From a virus (lineage: Duplodnaviria > Caudoviricetes), in the IMG/VR virus record IMGVR_UViG_3300029882_000009, positions 33,746-97,745 of that record: a stretch of 64,000 nucleotides of DNA, one strand, 5' to 3'. Below, one piece after another: positions 1,358-33,773 of the stretch (position 1 is its first letter; every line of letters starts with the position of its first letter). The notes beneath the pieces are model-generated. The model made no database searches. It saw only the letters and a list, made by a program, of their open reading frames with translations, and was not told where the DNA came from. A program made the position numbers and the translations under genes.

Positions 1358-2717
1358 ATCTGTAGAGTATGACTTCGAAAATTACGCTATCAAAGAAGTT
1401 GTCTCAGATATGGAAGTATCACTGGATATTACGGCCAATTCTTACTACAGTGATAGATTGCGTGGTATGGTATACGATCTGTCAACAAAACTCGCTTCTA
1501 ACAATGTCTTTGAAGAAGTAGTTCATGATCCTGTAGTAAAGAAATATACCAGCCACACAATATCAATACCGTTGACATGGTGGGATCATTTGAAAGACAC
1601 CTATAATGAGTATTGGCGCATGAATATTTTTAAAGTTAGTAAGCGTGAAATAATGGTAGAGAGAGTAATAAACAACTATCACAAACACGTCTATAGAGTT
1701 GTTCATGTTTGTCCTCATTTACCGCTGCGAAAAGATGATTTACATAACTGTATTAATTTCATACAGAAGGATCAATATATGAGTACTATTGTTATATATC
1801 ACAAGGCTGATTTCGATGGTTTGTTTTGCAGGGAAATTGCACATAAGGCACTCGGCGATAAAGACGTTGAGTACATCGGATGGGATTATGGTGACATAGA
1901 GCCTGTGTGTGACAAAGACGACACCATTTATATACTTGACATTAATGTTCCTTCATTGATGGATCATAAAGGTGTAATATGGATAGATCATCACAAGACT
2001 GCCATAGACCGATACGGAAAATTGCCCGGACTGCAAATTGATGGAGTGGCTGCTTGTCGTCTTTGTTGGCAATATTTAATTGAGGGTTCCCGAGAAACTT
2101 TAGTTAAGGAAATGTTTATTGATCGGTTACTTCCTGAGCCTATTGCTGTACGTCTCGCTGGGGAATATGATATTTGGGATAAGAGAGACGAGCGAGCAGA
2201 TACTTTTCAGTTCGGTCTTCGTAGTGTTGATCTTAATTCCAAACCACATGGTTTATATTCATATTGGGATAGACTGCTTGATAACGGTAAATATGCAGCT
2301 TGCACTGTTGACGAACTATTACAAAACGGTAAACTGATTCAAGATTACCAAACCAAACAATATGCTAAAACTATCAAATCATGCGGTTTTACTCTGGATT
2401 GGGAAGGTATCACATTCCTTGCTATAAATACATCAAGAGGATATAATTCTCACCTGTTTACCGCAGCGTTAACAGATGATCATGATGCCTGTCTTGGTTT
2501 TGGATGGGATGGCAATAAATGGTCAATTTCCTTATATGGTGCTCCACATCGACCTGATATTGATCTTTCACAAATCGCTATCAAGTATGGTGGGGGCGGA
2601 CACAAACAGGCTTGTGGTTTTCAATCACGTAATTTACCTTTTGTCTTAATGACCGAACAAGAACGAAAAGTTCAAAAGGAAGTTAACGGTTATGGATGTA
2701 GTGATGGTGGTGGGTAA
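1347..2717 (+). CDS. DHH-family phosphoesterase with N-terminal extension
   Basis: YHKADFDG, YILD, WIDHH and GGGGHKQACGF motifs; probable internal start at 1779. Confidence 0.85.
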   Translation: MGIRSVEYDFENYAIKEVVSDMEVSLDITANSYYSDRLRGMVYDLSTKLASNNVFEEVVHDPVVKKYTSHTISIPLTWWDHLKDTYNEYWRMNIFKVSKREIMVERVINNYHKHVYRVVHVCPHLPLRKDDLHNCINFIQKDQYMSTIVIYHKADFDGLFCREIAHKALGDKDVEYIGWDYGDIEPVCDKDDTIYILDINVPSLMDHKGVIWIDHHKTAIDRYGKLPGLQIDGVAACRLCWQYLIEGSRETLVKEMFIDRLLPEPIAVRLAGEYDIWDKRDERADTFQFGLRSVDLNSKPHGLYSYWDRLLDNGKYAACTVDELLQNGKLIQDYQTKQYAKTIKSCGFTLDWEGITFLAINTSRGYNSHLFTAALTDDHDACLGFGWDGNKWSISLYGAPHRPDIDLSQIAIKYGGGGHKQACGFQSRNLPFVLMTEQERKVQKEVNGYGCSDGGG

Positions 2718-3187
2718 TGAACAGAATCAGTCTTGACACTCGCTATATGTTGATTGCTCATACCGTAGCTCTTGGTTCTACCTGTTTACGTCGTAAAGTA
2801 GGAGCAGTATTACTTCGCGAAGGTCGTATCATTTCCACAGGTTATAATGGAACACCTTCAGGAAGCCCTCACTGTTCGTCTGACACGTGCGGACCAGGTA
2901 AATCCTGCACAGACACCATTCATGCTGAAATCAACGCTATAACAAGAGCTAGAGAGCAAGGGGATACACTCTATTGTACCGACCAACCTTGTCTACCTTG
3001 TATTAAAGCCATTGTTTCTCATAATTCCAATATTCGTATCTTATATTGGCGTTCCTATGAAGACAAAGTAAGAGATGAATGGTGTCAAAAGATGGGCGTT
3101 GAAATCTATGAAATTGGCTGGGATGACATGATAGATAAATATTCAGCATTAATAGGATTAGGAGAAGATAAATGTGTGACTGTATAA
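2717..3187 (+). CDS. dCMP deaminase
   Basis: STC.RRKVGAV, GYNG, HAEINA and PCLPC zinc motifs. Confidence 0.92.
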   Translation: MNRISLDTRYMLIAHTVALGSTCLRRKVGAVLLREGRIISTGYNGTPSGSPHCSSDTCGPGKSCTDTIHAEINAITRAREQGDTLYCTDQPCLPCIKAIVSHNSNIRILYWRSYEDKVRDEWCQKMGVEIYEIGWDDMIDKYSALIGLGEDKCVTV

Positions 3188-3402
3188 CGATGGTGAATGA
3201 AGCGTTAAAACCTACAGGTTTTTCTTTGTGTTGGTCTACTGCCATACCTTCAGAGGGAGGGCAAGCATGGACATTTATTCCTATAAAAACATGGAAACAA
3301 GGTAAAGGATTAAAACTTATTGATGGTCCAGTAATTCAACCTAAATTTTGTTCGTTTTGTGGTAATCCGGTAGGATTGTGTGGGGACGGGGTTGTTGTTT
3401 AG
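3172..3402 (+). CDS. Small Cys-rich hypothetical protein
   Basis: MCDC...FCSFCG. Confidence 0.6.
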   Translation: MCDCITMVNEALKPTGFSLCWSTAIPSEGGQAWTFIPIKTWKQGKGLKLIDGPVIQPKFCSFCGNPVGLCGDGVVV

Positions 3403-3559
3403 AGAAATAATTTATGTCTATCTCTTTTGTGGCTTGACACTTATGGGACTACCATATTGGCTCACTCACATATTTAGTCCTATTAGATTTTTGCTTCTCA
3501 CACTAACATGGCCTTATTGGGTATGGGCATCTATACAGACAGGGAATGATATAGAGTGA
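3392..3559 (+). CDS. Small membrane protein (not in ORF track)
   Basis: TTG-start frame ..IIYVYLFCGLTLMGLPYWLTHIFSPIRFLLLTLTWPYWVWAS.. fills the gap; stop overlaps next start. Confidence 0.45.
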   Translation: MLFREIIYVYLFCGLTLMGLPYWLTHIFSPIRFLLLTLTWPYWVWASIQTGNDIE

Positions 3560-3834
3560 GCACATTGATTGAAAAAGCTGAACTAGCTCGCATTCATTGG
3601 GAATCTATCCCTAAAGGTACGATAGAAAAATACAATGCATGGGATGTGTGGTCCGATGCCTGTAAGCGAAGAGATAGTTGGATAAGTAGATTAACCAACG
3701 CTCGTCTTAAAGTGTGTGAAGCCGCAATATTCTTTAAAGCTAATGTATCATGTCCCCCAGACTTTGAAAATCCTGAAAAGTATCTGATAAAGTTTGTATA
3801 TACACTTGAACTTATTGAAAGTGAAAACACATGA
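3556..3834 (+). CDS. Hypothetical protein
   Basis: ORF coupled to the next gene (ATGA). Confidence 0.6.
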   Translation: MSTLIEKAELARIHWESIPKGTIEKYNAWDVWSDACKRRDSWISRLTNARLKVCEAAIFFKANVSCPPDFENPEKYLIKFVYTLELIESENT

Positions 3835-4250
3835 ATGAACGTGAACTTTACCAACCCCTTATAAAAGGTGCTAACGCTGAGGGATGGTTGTTGTGGAGAG
3901 TCAAAGACGGCACTTATGGGAAAAATCCTTTTGATATAAGTGGTGTTGCCCCTGACGGTCGAGCGGTAGGTTTTGAGGTTAAAAAATTAATAAGGATAAG
4001 AGAAGACCAACCTATTGGTTGGTCTGTCTTTGAGTCCCATCAACTTGCCTATCTAAAAGCTTATCAGAAACATGGTGGTCATGCAATCATGGGGTTTTAC
4101 GGAACGTCAGACAATCGTCTTATTCTGGTTCGATATGACGAATTGCGTAACCCTAAAGCTTTACTGGAAACTTATCAGATGGTTGAATTGAAGAAGGATA
4201 AAGAAATTTGGACTGGCTGGTCTAAATATGAAATGTTGGGGAGGCCATAA
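3831..4250 (+). CDS. PD-(D/E)xK nuclease, RecU/Holliday junction resolvase-like
   Basis: PFDISG...GFEVK...HQLAYL motif. Confidence 0.75.
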   Translation: MNERELYQPLIKGANAEGWLLWRVKDGTYGKNPFDISGVAPDGRAVGFEVKKLIRIREDQPIGWSVFESHQLAYLKAYQKHGGHAIMGFYGTSDNRLILVRYDELRNPKALLETYQMVELKKDKEIWTGWSKYEMLGRP

Positions 4251-4274
4251 CTTCATCCATTTGTCTTAGTTCCT

Positions 4275-5009
4275 CTACTGGCAAGTCCCTGCAGCGAGAC
4301 TGTAGACCTGATTAACAACATATGAACCCCTCGTCTTCGGCAGCCACTCACACAGTTCCGCAATCTCATACATGCCGGAGCCTAGATTCTGCCCCTGAGC
4401 ATCCTCATGCCAGCAATTATCGAGCGGATCTGTCAGCGTGTCGTCAATCTCAAGACTCAACAATTCCGTCATATATGAGAAATCAGTATAATAATTGACT
4501 GCGATCACGAGCCCCTTGCGGAAGGTTAGCCATGTATGTAGACTACCTGCTGCATACCCGTTGCAAGTAAAAGTAGTTCCAGGTGCGACAAATATGACGT
4601 AGATATCGTTGCCGCCGCCCTGCCTGCCGAAGATCTTGGACAGGATAGAGTTAAGCAGGCCAGTTGGCCCATACGTATTTTGTACAACCGTAGACGCTGG
4701 CCCTACATCCATCGTTGAAGCGGTGGCTACGTTGATCGATGATGAGTATGCGCCGAGTGCACCTGAATCGTACTGCAGAATTACCGGGTCCGGGCTGGAC
4801 GCGATATACTTAACAAACTGAGTAAGTGCGGACTGTGTTGCCGATGGGTAGGCTCCCATGAAAATCAAATGGTATTGCGGGTTACTGATCGTGACGCCGC
4901 CGTAGTTCTGGAACCCGGACGGGCTGATTGGGCCGACGATTGTCTGTGCAAACGACGGGCCGGAGAGCAGGAGTGATAGACACATAAGTGCCCAAAGTCT
5001 AGTTTTCAT
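4275..5009 (-). CDS. Secreted PHI-1/EXORDIUM-like protein
   Basis: Signal peptide (..PSFA|Q); YGG.TI..P..HLIF, TDP...W..D, EIAELC.W and terminal YVVNQVYS...C pattern. Confidence 0.6.
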   Translation of the reverse strand: MKTRLWALMCLSLLLSGPSFAQTIVGPISPSGFQNYGGVTISNPQYHLIFMGAYPSATQSALTQFVKYIASSPDPVILQYDSGALGAYSSSINVATASTMDVGPASTVVQNTYGPTGLLNSILSKIFGRQGGGNDIYVIFVAPGTTFTCNGYAAGSLHTWLTFRKGLVIAVNYYTDFSYMTELLSLEIDDTLTDPLDNCWHEDAQGQNLGSGMYEIAELCEWLPKTRGSYVVNQVYSLAAGTCQ

Positions 5010-5957: not shown

Positions 5958-6132
5958 TTCCTGTCCCTATGCCGAGCATTCTTTCCAAGGCATCAAGACG
6001 TTGCTTGACTTCTGCCACATCTTGACCTAATGCTGTAATCTCTGGCTCCATCTCATCAACGGTCTCTTTTACTGCATCGGTTGCTGCAGCATCGGCATCG
6101 ATTCCCTGTTGATTGTTTGGTGTTGCGTCCAT
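5902..6132 (-). CDS. Small coiled-coil protein
   Basis: GGAG RBS; heptad pattern ITALGQDVAEVKQRLDALE. Confidence 0.65.
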   Translation of the reverse strand: MDATPNNQQGIDADAAATDAVKETVDEMEPEITALGQDVAEVKQRLDALERMLGIGTGIGRQQIPLFLSQIPQPED

Positions 6133-6141
6133 TGGTTTCTC

Positions 6142-6237
6142 CTAAAGGTTCATGTTTTTGAGCTTGATTGCAAGATACACGAATGCACCGACAGCAACAA
6201 CTGCGCCGCCGAGTATGGCGGAAAGCCATGGGTTCAT
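6142..6237 (-). CDS. 31-aa single-TM peptide downstream of endolysin (not in ORF track)
   Basis: GAGG RBS; MNPWLSAILGGAVVAVGAFVYLAIKLKNMNL*. Confidence 0.6.
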   Translation of the reverse strand: MNPWLSAILGGAVVAVGAFVYLAIKLKNMNL

Positions 6238-6248
6238 AATATTTCCTC

Positions 6249-6791
6249 CTATCCCTGAATGTCGGTGGCAGTCTTCAGGGCGTCAAGGCGATTAATCCAG
6301 CCTCGTAAAAATTGTTCATCGTGCGGGTAATGTGTGGCCAGGTACTCGTAGAACTGGACGCGCGCATTGATGTCAGCGAGCGCTAGGTTCGCCGGGTGTT
6401 GCGTGTTGTGAATAGCGTCACTTAAAGCTTGTGACCATTCCTCGCTCGTTGCAGATGTGTTGAAAATCTGGTTAAGTGTCAGGATTGCACGCCCAATGCC
6501 TTCGTTTACGCTACAGTCGAAGGTCACGATATCGAGCGGGACCGGCAGTCCTTCGCAGTGACACGGGGACCAATACCGCGTACTGTAGATGTCCTCTACT
6601 TCTGTCTGTGTAATGAGCCGCACGTCCTGCGTTGGTTCACCCTTAGATTTCCGGTAGGCGTCATAGTCTATGTGGGTTATCCCGAAGTTGGTTGCGCCTC
6701 CGTTGTCGCCAGGATCATCTGTATAGCCGCCCTCAGCTTGCAGGACGAATGCGAGAGATATTTGGAAACGGGTTTTTGTCGTTGTGGTCAT
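6249..6791 (-). CDS. Endolysin, glycoside hydrolase family 108 with peptidoglycan-binding domain
   Basis: EGGY.DDPGDNGGATNFGIT and FLRGWINR motifs. Confidence 0.9.
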   Translation of the reverse strand: MTTTTKTRFQISLAFVLQAEGGYTDDPGDNGGATNFGITHIDYDAYRKSKGEPTQDVRLITQTEVEDIYSTRYWSPCHCEGLPVPLDIVTFDCSVNEGIGRAILTLNQIFNTSATSEEWSQALSDAIHNTQHPANLALADINARVQFYEYLATHYPHDEQFLRGWINRLDALKTATDIQG

Positions 6792-7984
6792 TCCTGATGC
6801 TGGCTTTCTATATCACCGATACTTGCACCACTTGCTGGCATGACAATTGCATCTGTCTCAGTATCCGCTTTCCAGAAACGTTGTGGTTGCCATAAAGGAT
6901 ATGGAAGTAAATGAATACCACGTAATCCTATATGGTGAAGACGACAATTATGTACAGCCAATCCACCACCAATATAACTGTTACAACCTGACACCTCTAT
7001 GTGGTATACTAAACCACTATGGAACTTTCTACTAATTTGCCGAGGCGCTGCCCACCGTGCCTTGAGGGCCGGAATATTAGATACGATATCAACATTTGTC
7101 GTATCTGTGAAGGGCAATTCACCGTGCCTCACAAAGTCGCCAGTAAATACACCACTTGTAGTTCCGTCTGTGAATCTTCGCGTAGAAGTATTGACAAACT
7201 GATTTATCCCAAACAAAGAATTTGCCCGATTTGTAACATGTCTTTCATTCGAGGGAAAGGAGGTCATCAATCGTTTTGCTCCAACTATGGAATTAAAACC
7301 GATAACAGAATCGAGAATCTCCAAATCTTCGAAACTAATTCCGACCACCTCAAGCACGAACATAGAATCGGTAAGTTCGACAACCGGCCTCCACGTCCCA
7401 GAAACGAGAAAGGGATGTTCGTTAGTGGCACCATATCCATTGACAATATTGATATACTCACTAACATACCGACTTCCAGTACCAGTGACTAAATGAGGGT
7501 TTAGGTCGTGTCCCACAACTTCATCACCGATACTAATTTCACTTATTGGCTTTTGGTCGCCATCAGCCATCAACACAGGGGTGTCTCCGGTTTGGCAAAG
7601 TACAGTTAGATTCCCTTCACCTTCTATGAACTCCAAAAATTGTTCATCAGATGTAAGACCGAACTCGGGATATAGTTCTTCGAACTTTGAAATATCCACA
7701 CCTTCTTGTAGTGAATATTCAACTAAAGAATGGTGTAATTCAAGATCCCCAGCGCACTCATGATTTCCAACCCAGCACTTCATCTTACCAAGTTTGGTAA
7801 GACGTGCTTTGGCTTGGTTAAAATATTTGTAGTGAGGATCTCCAACACGTGGAGGATGTTCAGGTACAGCTTCACGAATATGAATGGTCGTGCTTTGATA
7901 ATGAGCGGCAGTGACAGTACTGACATTTGTTGCAGTATTGGTCACTGTTTGCTTAACATCGACTGTCTCTGTAACATCTGCCAT
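6788..7984 (-). CDS. HNH-type protein interrupted by an intein
   Basis: Exteins join as CWV...C..DLELHH...NLTVL|CRLHH...GIH. Confidence 0.75.
   Translation of the reverse strand: MADVTETVDVKQTVTNTATNVSTVTAAHYQSTTIHIREAVPEHPPRVGDPHYKYFNQAKARLTKLGKMKCWVGNHECAGDLELHHSLVEYSLQEGVDISKFEELYPEFGLTSDEQFLEFIEGEGNLTVLCQTGDTPVLMADGDQKPISEISIGDEVVGHDLNPHLVTGTGSRYVSEYINIVNGYGATNEHPFLVSGTWRPVVELTDSMFVLEVVGISFEDLEILDSVIGFNSIVGAKRLMTSFPSNERHVTNRANSLFGINQFVNTSTRRFTDGTTSGVFTGDFVRHGELPFTDTTNVDIVSNIPALKARWAAPRQISRKFHSGLVYHIEVSGCNSYIGGGLAVHNCRLHHIGLRGIHLLPYPLWQPQRFWKADTETDAIVMPASGASIGDIESQHQE
6947..7597 (-). mobile_element. Intein (HINT domain, 217 aa)
   Basis: Block A CQTGDTPVLMADG, block B TNEHPF, block F VYHIEV, block G VHN followed by Cys+1. 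Confidence 0.9.
7019..7492 (+). pseudogene. Antisense Zn-finger/HNH homing endonuclease remnant inside the intein
   Basis: CxxC..F...CS repeats; GIKTDNRIENL...H; the first His strand of the HNH motif appears absent. Confidence 0.6.
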
Positions 7985-8380
7985 TTAAGCGACTTTCTTC
8001 AATGCTGCTACTGCCGCAGCGTAAGCTGTTGCAATTGCGCCTGGTACGAGACCGACCGCATACGCAGACAGGCCACTAACGATTGTTCCAACTACAGGAT
8101 TGATCTTTGATAGACCAGATACAACTATAGCAATAGCGGTATCATTTTTTGGTTGAAGAATTGCAGCAACTGCTGCTTCACTGAGAGTTCCATCAGCGCT
8201 GAGAAGTGTGGTAATTTCTGACTGAAAATAAGTTGTAAGATTTTCGGTAAGTGGAGTTACCAAACCTTCAATTTGGGCGGTCGCTGCGTTTTCATCAGCG
8301 ATACCTTTTAGGTGTGTTTCAAAGTATACATATGGCTTTACAACGAGCCAATGAAGAACGTCTGATTCAATACTGGGCAT
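7985..8380 (-). CDS. Hypothetical protein with hydrophobic C-terminus (holin candidate)
   Basis: AAGGA RBS; first gene after the lysis-cassette promoter. Confidence 0.5.
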   Translation of the reverse strand: MPSIESDVLHWLVVKPYVYFETHLKGIADENAATAQIEGLVTPLTENLTTYFQSEITTLLSADGTLSEAAVAAILQPKNDTAIAIVVSGLSKINPVVGTIVSGLSAYAVGLVPGAIATAYAAAVAALKKVA

Positions 8381-8415
8381 GATATTTATCCTTTTCTTTC
8401 GATAATTACACTTAT

Positions 8416-8444
8416 ATTATACAGGATTTTTGAATAGTTGTCAA
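8416..8444 (-). promoter_or_regulatory. Consensus sigma70 promoter upstream of the lysis cassette
   Basis: TTGACA-17-TATAAT. Confidence 0.8.
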
Positions 8445-8446
8445 TA

Positions 8447-9058
8447 TTATGGTTTTGGGGCTCTGGTGACAATATTGGTTTCGGTTACATTCATGGTGTC
8501 ATCATGTTTTTTGGCGTTATCTTCGAGTACTTTTACTCTCGACATTAATTCCTTACCAACACTTACCTCATGCTCCCACAGATCCTTATAATTTTGAGCT
8601 TCTGCCTTAGCTGCTCTGATATCAGCCTGGGCCGCACCAAGTTGTTGCATCACATCTCCAAGTCGTCGCTCCGCATCAAGCAATTGAGTATAGAGTGTTT
8701 CTTGAAGCCCATCGACTCGCGCGTTAATTGTAGCTCTTTGGCCATTGAGTTCGGACCATGCATCACTTAATTCTTTACGAGCTTCAAGTTCCCGGTCTAA
8801 AGCCGCTTGCGCTGAAGCGGCTTTGGCAACTGCTATTTCAGTATCACGCGTTGCTTTGATTAACTCAGCTATTCGTTTAGCTTCTGCAATTTCCCCGTCC
8901 GATTTCGCTTTCGCGTCTGCCGTTGCCGCATCTGATTTTGATTTCGCTGCTGATATCTCTTCCTTGCGCTTACTTAAAAATGCCGATATCATTGAAGCTA
9001 TTGTGAATAGTCCAAGAATAGTGCCTACAACCGCTTGTGTATTTGTTATGGATATCAT
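8447..9058 (-). CDS. N-terminal TM plus coiled-coil protein (spanin/holin-like candidate)
   Basis: One TM helix followed by a long coiled coil; lies between tail and lysis genes. Confidence 0.55.
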   Translation of the reverse strand: MISITNTQAVVGTILGLFTIASMISAFLSKRKEEISAAKSKSDAATADAKAKSDGEIAEAKRIAELIKATRDTEIAVAKAASAQAALDRELEARKELSDAWSELNGQRATINARVDGLQETLYTQLLDAERRLGDVMQQLGAAQADIRAAKAEAQNYKDLWEHEVSVGKELMSRVKVLEDNAKKHDDTMNVTETNIVTRAPKP

Positions 9059-33322: not shown

Positions 33323-33773
33323 CGACTTCTAGCTCCTTGGAACTATCATGAATCTCTTCGTTTACAGATGGAGGCATTATAAGGCTGTTTGTTTCAGCGT
33401 TTATTGTCGATCCATCACTTTGCTTCTCAAACTGACCACAATCATGAAATGCCAACCAGTGAAGGATATGATAGCGCCATGCAATGGCGTGTGCTTCAGA
33501 TCGAACTGGTAGAGGAGCATCGTAAGGATTGTAATCGATCACTATACAGGCCCGATTTATTTTGTTTTTACTATTTGGATGGAAAGAAAACCATTCCATT
33601 TTATCGTCAGTGGTGATCTGTCTTTGATCCCCAGCAAGCTTGTATATAAAATCTTCAGCTTGTGTTTTTGATTCAAACACCACAACACGTTGACTAACCG
33701 ATAAAAGACGATAATTACCGGACTTAGGAACACCGACCGCTATAGCGCAGTAACCTTTAGGGATTTCTATCAT
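33306..33773 (-). CDS. Hypothetical protein
   Basis: Coupled ORF. Confidence 0.6.
   Translation of the reverse strand: MIEIPKGYCAIAVGVPKSGNYRLLSVSQRVVVFESKTQAEDFIYKLAGDQRQITTDDKMEWFSFHPNSKNKINRACIVIDYNPYDAPLPVRSEAHAIAWRYHILHWLAFHDCGQFEKQSDGSTINAETNSLIMPPSVNEEIHDSSKELEVDALRC

Follow-up and report, generated by a model that had tools for sequence, protein, structure and literature searches.

Inteins that carry an endonuclease gene on their antisense strand are a known architecture, but one that is rare in print. Non-canonical inteins with an antisense LAGLIDADG endonuclease, for example the cyanobacterial DnaX intein, have been noted before (Gorbalenya 1998; Gogarten et al. 2002; both as cited in 10.1101/2025.01.02.630785), and purifying selection on the out-of-frame DnaX endonuclease has been reported (10.64898/2026.09.14.751524). 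A preprint on the inteins of actinobacteriophages distinguishes several non-canonical types, including inteins with antisense VSR-like endonucleases. Its text proposes that inteins are invaded by free-standing endonuclease genes, and predicts that antisense open reading frames (ORFs) decay fast once homing stops (10.1101/2025.01.02.630785). The present analysis concerns an intein in a window of 64,000 nucleotides, positions 33,746 to 97,745 of the 97.7-kb viral record IMGVR_UViG_3300029882_000009 (Caudoviricetes), the same DNA of which is present in peat-metagenome sequencing runs. This intein interrupts an HNH-like phage gene on the minus strand, and its own opposite strand harbours an ORF of 157 codons related to zinc-finger HNH_3 homing endonucleases (Table 1). 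An earlier reading of the window, made from the sequence alone, proposed a dual-coding mobile element with an inverted endonuclease gene. The locus is very probably a composite selfish element in decay, in which a class-1 mini-intein was invaded in antisense by a free-standing zinc-finger HNH_3 gene, the nuclease of which has since been lost. The premise of the sequence-only reading, that inteins carry LAGLIDADG or HNH domains in their own frame, is incomplete in view of the antisense LAGLIDADG and VSR-like cases already published in the preprint cited.

The window element resembles the DnaX-type inteins in that the endonuclease is encoded in intein DNA but off the intein frame, with the intein frame remaining open; invasion of a mini-intein has been proposed for that type as well (10.1101/2025.01.02.630785). 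It differs from them in carrying an HNH_3 endonuclease with FCS-like zinc fingers instead of a LAGLIDADG endonuclease, in being internally deleted and in residing in a phage gene of the HNH family. The actinobacteriophage inteins, many of which are located in the terminase large subunit, likewise have a separately framed endonuclease that is thought to originate from a free-standing gene. In the main text of that survey HNH appears only as an in-frame domain and no antisense HNH is described (10.1101/2025.01.02.630785). Phage inteins whose own frame includes HNH_3 also combine an intein with this type of endonuclease, but in them the HNH forms part of the intein polypeptide as a domain, while the window has it as a separate, opposite-strand gene. 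In fractured genes, a free-standing endonuclease gene stands between the two parts of a split intein (Dassa et al. 2009, PMC2677866). As in the window, this gene is found at the endonuclease-insertion point of the intein; however, the intein frame is broken and splicing occurs in trans, whereas the window intein is contiguous (PMC2677866). The ShiLan domain is an out-of-frame HNH on the same strand inside phage DNA methylase genes, without an intein, and shares with the window an HNH gene hidden in a host ORF that stays open (PMC11855218). It lies on the same strand at a frame offset and lacks an intein splicing domain, whereas the window gene lies on the opposite strand with a full intein around it. 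A match in phage Bipolar proved to be a ShiLan element, with a frame offset of 2. Group I introns with antisense homing-endonuclease genes are a further parallel, a self-splicing element likewise sheltering an oppositely oriented gene; an intron sets no reading-frame constraint on the other strand, while an intein does.

Judged by its sequence, the antisense ORF of the window is a genuine relative of the free-standing zinc-finger HNH_3 endonucleases, with homology far beyond chance. Its translation contains CxxC..F..TCSxxC repeats and GIKTDNRIENL...H, the zinc-finger repeats and second half of an HNH motif that the sequence-only reading had recognized in this 157-codon frame. A phmmer search with the ORF against 1.84 billion representative proteins yielded 12 matches at E<=1e-3 (best 2.8e-8), and Pfam HNH_3 is carried by nine of the ten homologues scanned. 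The aligned family members all share the N-terminal CxxC...TCSxxC repeats and an FCSN.CR motif, and seven cysteines together with D95, N96, R97, N100, L101 and H110 of the ORF are invariant with the family. A family profile of 199 positions, built from ten phmmer homologues without the window sequence, was searched against the 669 six-frame ORFs of at least 40 amino acids in the window, and the antisense ORF was its only match (92.6 bits, E 1e-27). A second profile, derived from the HNH clade found in antisense in other inteins, which represents another subfamily, also matched only this ORF (31.5 bits, E 5.9e-9; next best 8.2). PHROG HNH was the sole match in the family libraries, and a weak one (E 7.6e-4). 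Matches to zf-FCS were below threshold in the homologues P0004 and P0010. Foldseek comparison of the ORF model with the PDB gave nothing at E<=0.001; among small structures the FCS finger 2w0t came closest, without reaching significance (TMt 0.56, E 0.67).

The identification as an HNH/zinc-finger endonuclease gene, made in the sequence-only reading from motifs, is thus carried by phmmer and by two profiles, even though Pfam HNH_3 itself is silent. An alternative in which the ORF is a chance open frame with cysteine-rich noise is refuted by the restriction of both profile matches to this one ORF out of 669, by the phmmer match and by the invariant cysteines and D-N-R..N-L..H columns; the missing Pfam HNH match and the ordinary length of the open frame are what speaks for it. 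The openness of the antisense frame was rejected as evidence in itself. Codon-aligned antisense runs of up to 143 codons are reached in other genes of the window (13,060 codons), about 0.4 antisense open runs of at least 157 codons are expected by chance in the window genes, and several antisense open frames of 120-164 amino acids are present in the window.

The family profile aligns to the ORF in two pieces, positions 4-89 with residues 6-91 and positions 157-190 with residues 93-126. The intervening positions 90-156 are absent, in agreement with the earlier suggestion that this copy is partly deleted and lacks its first His strand. The deleted stretch includes the EHRxVME..VHH strand (..VHH.N) with the catalytic His. 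The nuclease of this copy is most likely dead, because 67 family positions including the catalytic His-His strand are missing. It is conceivable that the truncated antisense protein is nevertheless still made and useful, as a zinc-finger DNA-binding protein or regulator, and that this keeps the frame open for its 157 codons. The first zinc-finger module (residues 11-50) is predicted by AlphaFold2 with a local confidence score (pLDDT, for predicted local distance difference test) of 94-97, and the 9 Leu and 14 Ser codons in the intein frame avoid the three codons that would create antisense stops (P ~0.0008, window codon usage). However, the null model for this codon avoidance is weak, since the codons of the intein frame go back to an HNH frame that used to be under selection, and chance antisense open runs in the window are nearly as long. 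Furthermore, the HNH remnant folds poorly (pLDDT 43-68 from residue 81), no promoter-like site is found upstream and no relatives for a selection test were found. A retained function of the truncated protein is therefore considered unlikely.

The intein occupies residues 130-346 of the 398-amino-acid precursor, and the class-1 residue set (Cys1, T58-N-E-H61, ..VHN|C) is entirely present. An intein-less homologue of 153 amino acids on another viral contig (L002:3001-3462) shows 46% identity over the exteins and reads ...GNLEVL|C.. without interruption. As L002 runs uninterrupted past the junction, the 217 amino acids represent a clean in-frame insertion, which sits directly before the Cys of the ..L|C..HH motif of the host gene. 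Pfam Hom_end_hint matches the first 44 intein residues (33.8 bits against a cut-off of 32.1; E 4.5e-8). These results confirm the earlier claim of a complete Cys...His-Asn/Cys intein splitting an HNH protein at NLTVL|C. An AlphaFold2 model, for which the intein was aligned with 11 others, reaches a pLDDT of 92-97 in residues 1-45 and of 88-92 in residues 195-217; the values are low around block B (residues 46-61), ~56 in residues 62-78 and <50 in residues 79-193. The top matches of this model in the PDB by Foldseek were all inteins or Hint domains (best 6riy_A, E 5.7e-4, prob 1.00), with low TM-scores that are expected because the middle of the intein is disordered. With tblastn, the N-terminal splicing domain was found to match phage terminase inteins, the best being those of the Gordonia phages Angelicage, Affeca, Keitabear and Sedona. 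The same four phages (the first as 'Angelicase') are endonuclease VII-like cases in the actinobacteriophage preprint (10.1101/2025.01.02.630785). The intein is probably splicing-competent at present. It is highly unlikely that it no longer splices and that the host gene is dead and open by chance: none of the catalytic residues is missing, the frame of 398 codons is unbroken, the same 398-amino-acid protein is recorded on 11 contigs and its DNA is identical in contigs of several runs. No test result favours such a loss; model confidence is low around block B.

The family label of the host gene is based on L002, which matches phrog_8048 'HNH endonuclease' (E 1.9e-6). A second homologue had no match and Pfam found none either, and for this reason the assignment of the host protein to an HNH-like phage family is moderately supported. 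No intein was found at the host-gene site in any of the 8 readable loci among 9 viral loci, or in any of the 21 readable loci among 27 metagenome loci; the junction was unread in L020, L024, L029, L032, L038 and L042, for which the script gave no in-frame reading, and in L047, which is truncated. A first metagenome scan with the host protein gave 132 pattern matches, none of which was confirmed. Over window positions 6000-8600, contigs of 4 runs were identical, without variants and without an intein-skipping joint or intein-less allele. Among 20 sequencing runs, none with RNA carried this DNA.

The two frames are codon-aligned (phase 0): second codon positions are opposed, the coordinate modulo 3 being 2 in both, and the TAA stop of the antisense ORF faces a Leu codon of the intein frame. 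The central part of the intein frame was earlier noted to be without recognisable domain. Indeed, Pfam detected no domain in it, and a word-indexed search of 5.8 billion proteins with the intein region returned, among 436 candidates, only the protein itself. The intein frame opposite the HNH gene is therefore read as a spacer, because it has no homologues and is predicted to be disordered. A synonymous-codon shuffle is uninformative for the codon-aligned phase of the window, and a calculation from codon usage was used instead. Given the HNH amino acids and the codon usage of the window, the probability of an intein frame without stop is 0.0011, in keeping with selection to leave the host gene unbroken. 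The stretch in which conserved features of the two proteins oppose each other is only ~12 codons long (7343-7378); in it, the region of the last HNH histidine faces the last strands of the N-terminal splicing domain. The RNEKGMF segment of the antisense ORF lies, by coordinates, opposite intein residues 60-66 (EHPFLVS), so that the overlap with block B seen in the sequence-only reading is correct. The dual coding proposed in that reading is mostly one-sided, since the intein frame opposite the HNH is a spacer without conservation that is predicted to be disordered.

Antisense HNH_3 genes were found to be recurrent in other inteins. A search for HNH relatives in viral contigs gave 7 loci, in six of which the HNH ORF lies wholly inside an opposite-strand terminase large subunit gene with an intein. 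A second viral scan (80 loci) added 11 with the same arrangement (L056, L057, L066, L082, L085, L102, L108, L120, L122, L123 and L125), of which L056 and L057 repeat the contigs of L003 and L004. Altogether, 14 viral contigs harbour intact antisense HNH_3 ORFs (171-310 codons) in inteins, and a 15th (L006) holds a remnant. In a scan of bacterial and archaeal genomes, again with 80 loci, an open frame on the opposite strand encloses the HNH frame at 28 loci, covers no more than the match at 13 and does neither at 39. Both the N- and the C-terminal intein blocks flank the HNH in 20 of the 25 enclosed genome loci tested with small block profiles, and Pfam Intein_splicing was found in several of these loci. 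The host genes at the genome loci encode terminases and helicases of the Strawberry-notch-like and SNF2 types, a Polaromonas genome being one example. Nearly all antisense-HNH inteins (20 loci among L131-L184, and L003-L125) are inserted inside the Walker A motif or P-loop, with junctions like G|C...HN|SGK[ST]. This location fits the published idea that nucleotide-binding sites allow inteins to switch host genes.

Among cultured phages, the arrangement is present in Pectobacterium phage Ymer. A 755-amino-acid 'hypothetical protein' of this phage (L129, record 2451-4715) is a terminase (Terminase_6N and 6C) with an intein, on the opposite strand of which an unannotated HNH_3 frame of 242 codons is located. 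The same tblastn match was obtained in seven further Pectobacterium and Dickeya phage records, at the level of the match. In 12 mapped inteins the HNH ORF spans most of the intein, leaving 7-82 residues at the N-terminal and 22-47 at the C-terminal end, a layout identical to that of the window. Intact antisense-HNH inteins measure 281-360 amino acids against 217 in the window. L006, at a later stage of decay, has an intein of 177 amino acids with an antisense HNH_3 remnant of 61 codons, and this size series is therefore read as progressive shrinkage. Two further loci were seen in passing. The 1208-amino-acid terminase ORF L004:1152-4775(-) apparently contains two inteins, one of them with the antisense HNH; the other insertion lies upstream in the P-loop region and has LAGLIDADG-like motifs (both judged by eye). 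At L137:1554-5045(-), an AAA_2 ATPase contains an insert that resembles an intein (C...HHN) and carries an HNH in antisense; this insert was missed by the intein-block profiles, and has Gly instead of Cys, Ser or Thr at position +1.

In these intact relatives purifying selection acts on the antisense HNH frame, and the intein frame does no more than stay open. Four close pairs (95-97% identical DNA) gave ratios of nonsynonymous to synonymous substitution rates (dN/dS) of 0.09-0.15 for the HNH frame versus 0.97-1.83 for the intein frame, and third codon positions of the HNH frame took between 13 of 20 and 20 of 25 substitutions; more distant pairs agree where synonymous sites are unsaturated. 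Synonymous-codon shuffling of 11 HNH genes predicted 3.7-10.5 stops in the intein frame, where none is observed in any of the 11, and the fraction of stop-free shuffles was <=0.01 at each locus. The comparison of dN/dS per strand that had been suggested for the window could thus be made at these other loci, while the window copy has no relatives to compare. An inverted endonuclease gene within an intein, as the sequence-only reading proposed, is accordingly a real arrangement, recurrent and selected in viral contigs, in genomes and in phage Ymer.

A full-text literature search turned up no description of an intein with an HNH in antisense, with the qualification that the supplementary tables of the 2025 preprint, which might list one, were outside its scope. 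The HNH version of the antisense-endonuclease intein thus appears to be undescribed in print, yet widespread. It seems reasonably probable that the antisense-HNH_3 inteins form a large and widespread class, not found described in print, which extends over phages, prophages and mobile elements from many phyla of bacteria and some of archaea, occupies mostly the P-loop of terminases and helicases (G....|..GK[ST]) and has purifying selection on the HNH frame, with the intein frame only stop-free. All other antisense-HNH inteins have one codon phase (phase 2, first positions opposed). Because the window differs in its phase, in its HNH subfamily (the zinc-finger type) and in its host gene, capture of free-standing HNH genes by mini-inteins would have happened at least twice, the window showing decay.

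In the course of events proposed for the window, a free-standing zinc-finger HNH_3 gene with its own ATG would have entered the endonuclease-insertion loop of a mini-intein in reverse. Only variants with a stop-free opposite frame would survive, because the host gene must be translated through. The opposite stretch would become a disordered spacer, presumably harmless since it is removed with the intein by protein splicing. An intact endonuclease would be produced from the opposite strand and cleave alleles that lack the intein, by which intein and endonuclease would be copied together (homing). In this phage an in-frame deletion has since removed the catalytic strand, and the element would be shrinking towards a mini-intein. 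It is quite unlikely that the arrangement arose instead by inversion, by which the middle of a canonical intein with an in-frame HNH was flipped and the intein frame remained open by chance or selection. Suitable precursors are known, as in-frame HNH_3 inteins occur in phages, for example in the dCTP deaminase intein of cyanophage CL131 (PMC6293099), and inversion or indels are named as routes between architectures in the text of the actinobacteriophage preprint (10.1101/2025.01.02.630785). However, the antisense ORF begins with an ATG of its own where the free-standing members have their native N-terminus, profile position 4 falling on ORF residue 6. Moreover, the zinc-finger-type relatives in viral contigs have no enclosing antisense ORF and are therefore free-standing, and the intact antisense clade consists of full-length ORFs with a start codon, under purifying selection.

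Several points weigh against the proposed invasion and decay of the window element. The homologues in the family profile were originally found with the window ORF as query, which makes that match partly circular; the profile of the antisense clade is free of this circularity. Pfam HNH_3 (PF13392) gave no match to the antisense ORF at E<=1. The ORF is still open over 157 codons despite the deletion, which fits a very recent deletion but also some retained function. No sigma-70-like site was found upstream of 7019 in a promoter and terminator scan of 6600-8100, where two promoter-like sites were present versus 2.6 expected, and no evident Shine-Dalgarno-like sequence precedes 7019. No close relative of this intein or its HNH was found, which makes selection on either frame unmeasurable here: with the antisense ORF as query, tblastn matched none of 50,697 phage records, a word-indexed search of the same 5.8 billion proteins gave 5 candidates with none at E<=0.01, and the locus of the nearest HNH homologue (P0002) was not found in viral contigs. 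Finally, codon phase, HNH subfamily and host gene all set the window element apart from every other antisense case, so that the precedent supports the principle and not common descent.

Table 1 Positions of the intein-bearing gene and of the antisense ORF in the window
Feature	Position	Strand	Basis or remark
Host gene precursor, phage HNH-family protein interrupted by the intein	6788..7984	-	398 amino acids and stop (ORF list)
N-extein, 129 amino acids, last residues ..GNLTVL	7598..7984	-	Aligns to L002 and other intein-less homologues
Intein, 217 amino acids: Cys1, block B TNEH at residues 58-61, C-terminal His-Asn	6947..7597	-	Translation, Pfam, AlphaFold2, Foldseek
N-terminal splicing domain (blocks A, B and following strands), intein residues ~1-85	7343..7597	-	Aligns to other inteins
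Intein-frame spacer, intein residues ~86-192, antisense image of the HNH gene	7022..7342	-	No homologue, predicted disordered
C-terminal splicing domain (blocks F, G, ..VHN), intein residues 193-217	6947..7021	-	Aligns with C-terminal blocks of 11 other inteins
C-extein, 52 amino acids, begins with +1 Cys (CRLHH...)	6791..6946	-	Translation
Antisense ORF, internally deleted zinc-finger HNH_3 homing-endonuclease gene	7019..7492	+	157 codons and TAA; stop-to-stop 7013..7489 is 159 codons
N-terminal region, two CxxC...CxxxC zinc-finger modules, up to FCSN	7028..7285	+	Profile positions 4-89, 66.9 bits
Deletion junction, single Tyr codon in place of profile positions 90-156 (67 positions)	7286..7288	+	Family alignment and profile
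Second half of HNH motif (GIKTDNRIENL....H)	7289..7390	+	Profile positions 157-190, 31.3 bits
Unconserved tail that faces the N-terminal splicing domain (block B included) as far as the TAA stop	7391..7492	+	Last residues pLDDT 43-49

The intein-bearing gene adjoins a GH108 endolysin gene (Glyco_hydro_108 and PG_binding_3; 6249-6791(-)), the start of which overlaps its end by 4 bases (6788-6791). This overlap suggests that the two genes may be translationally coupled.

Antisense HNH_3 genes were also encountered outside inteins. Zinc-finger HNH_3 genes lie in antisense in N6_N4 DNA methylase ORFs at two loci (L151:2348-2815(+) in L151:867-3833(-), and L153:2414-2839(+) in L153:1512-3236(-)). 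The methylase ORFs stay open across the HNH_3 gene and no intein blocks were detected in them; these loci look like an opposite-strand counterpart of the same-strand ShiLan insertion. At two other loci (L055:129-785(+) in L055:3-2969(-), and L202:2249-2875(+) in L202:2-5044(-)) an HNH_3 gene lies in antisense, in the codon-aligned phase, in a very long enclosing ORF without intein blocks, one of which encodes a large polyvalent protein (LPD22 domain). The HNH_3 gene at L007/L051:2114-2752(+) faces an antisense open frame of 210 codons of no recognisable family, on a contig of 45% GC, which is probably due to chance.

Genes of the kind described here are missed by genome annotation, and long inteins that seem to be without domain deserve translation on both strands. 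The cultured phage Ymer, and probably its relatives, carry the arrangement unannotated, which makes expression, homing and dual-strand constraint testable at the bench. The way in which inteins gained their endonucleases is a long-standing problem ('splicing first, endonuclease later'), for which antisense genes are rare natural intermediates. Such genes were known for LAGLIDADG endonucleases since 1998 and for VSR-like endonucleases from the 2025 preprint. The present results add that HNH_3, the commonest endonuclease family of phages, uses the antisense route as well, that this is frequent, and that selection on the antisense strand can be measured.

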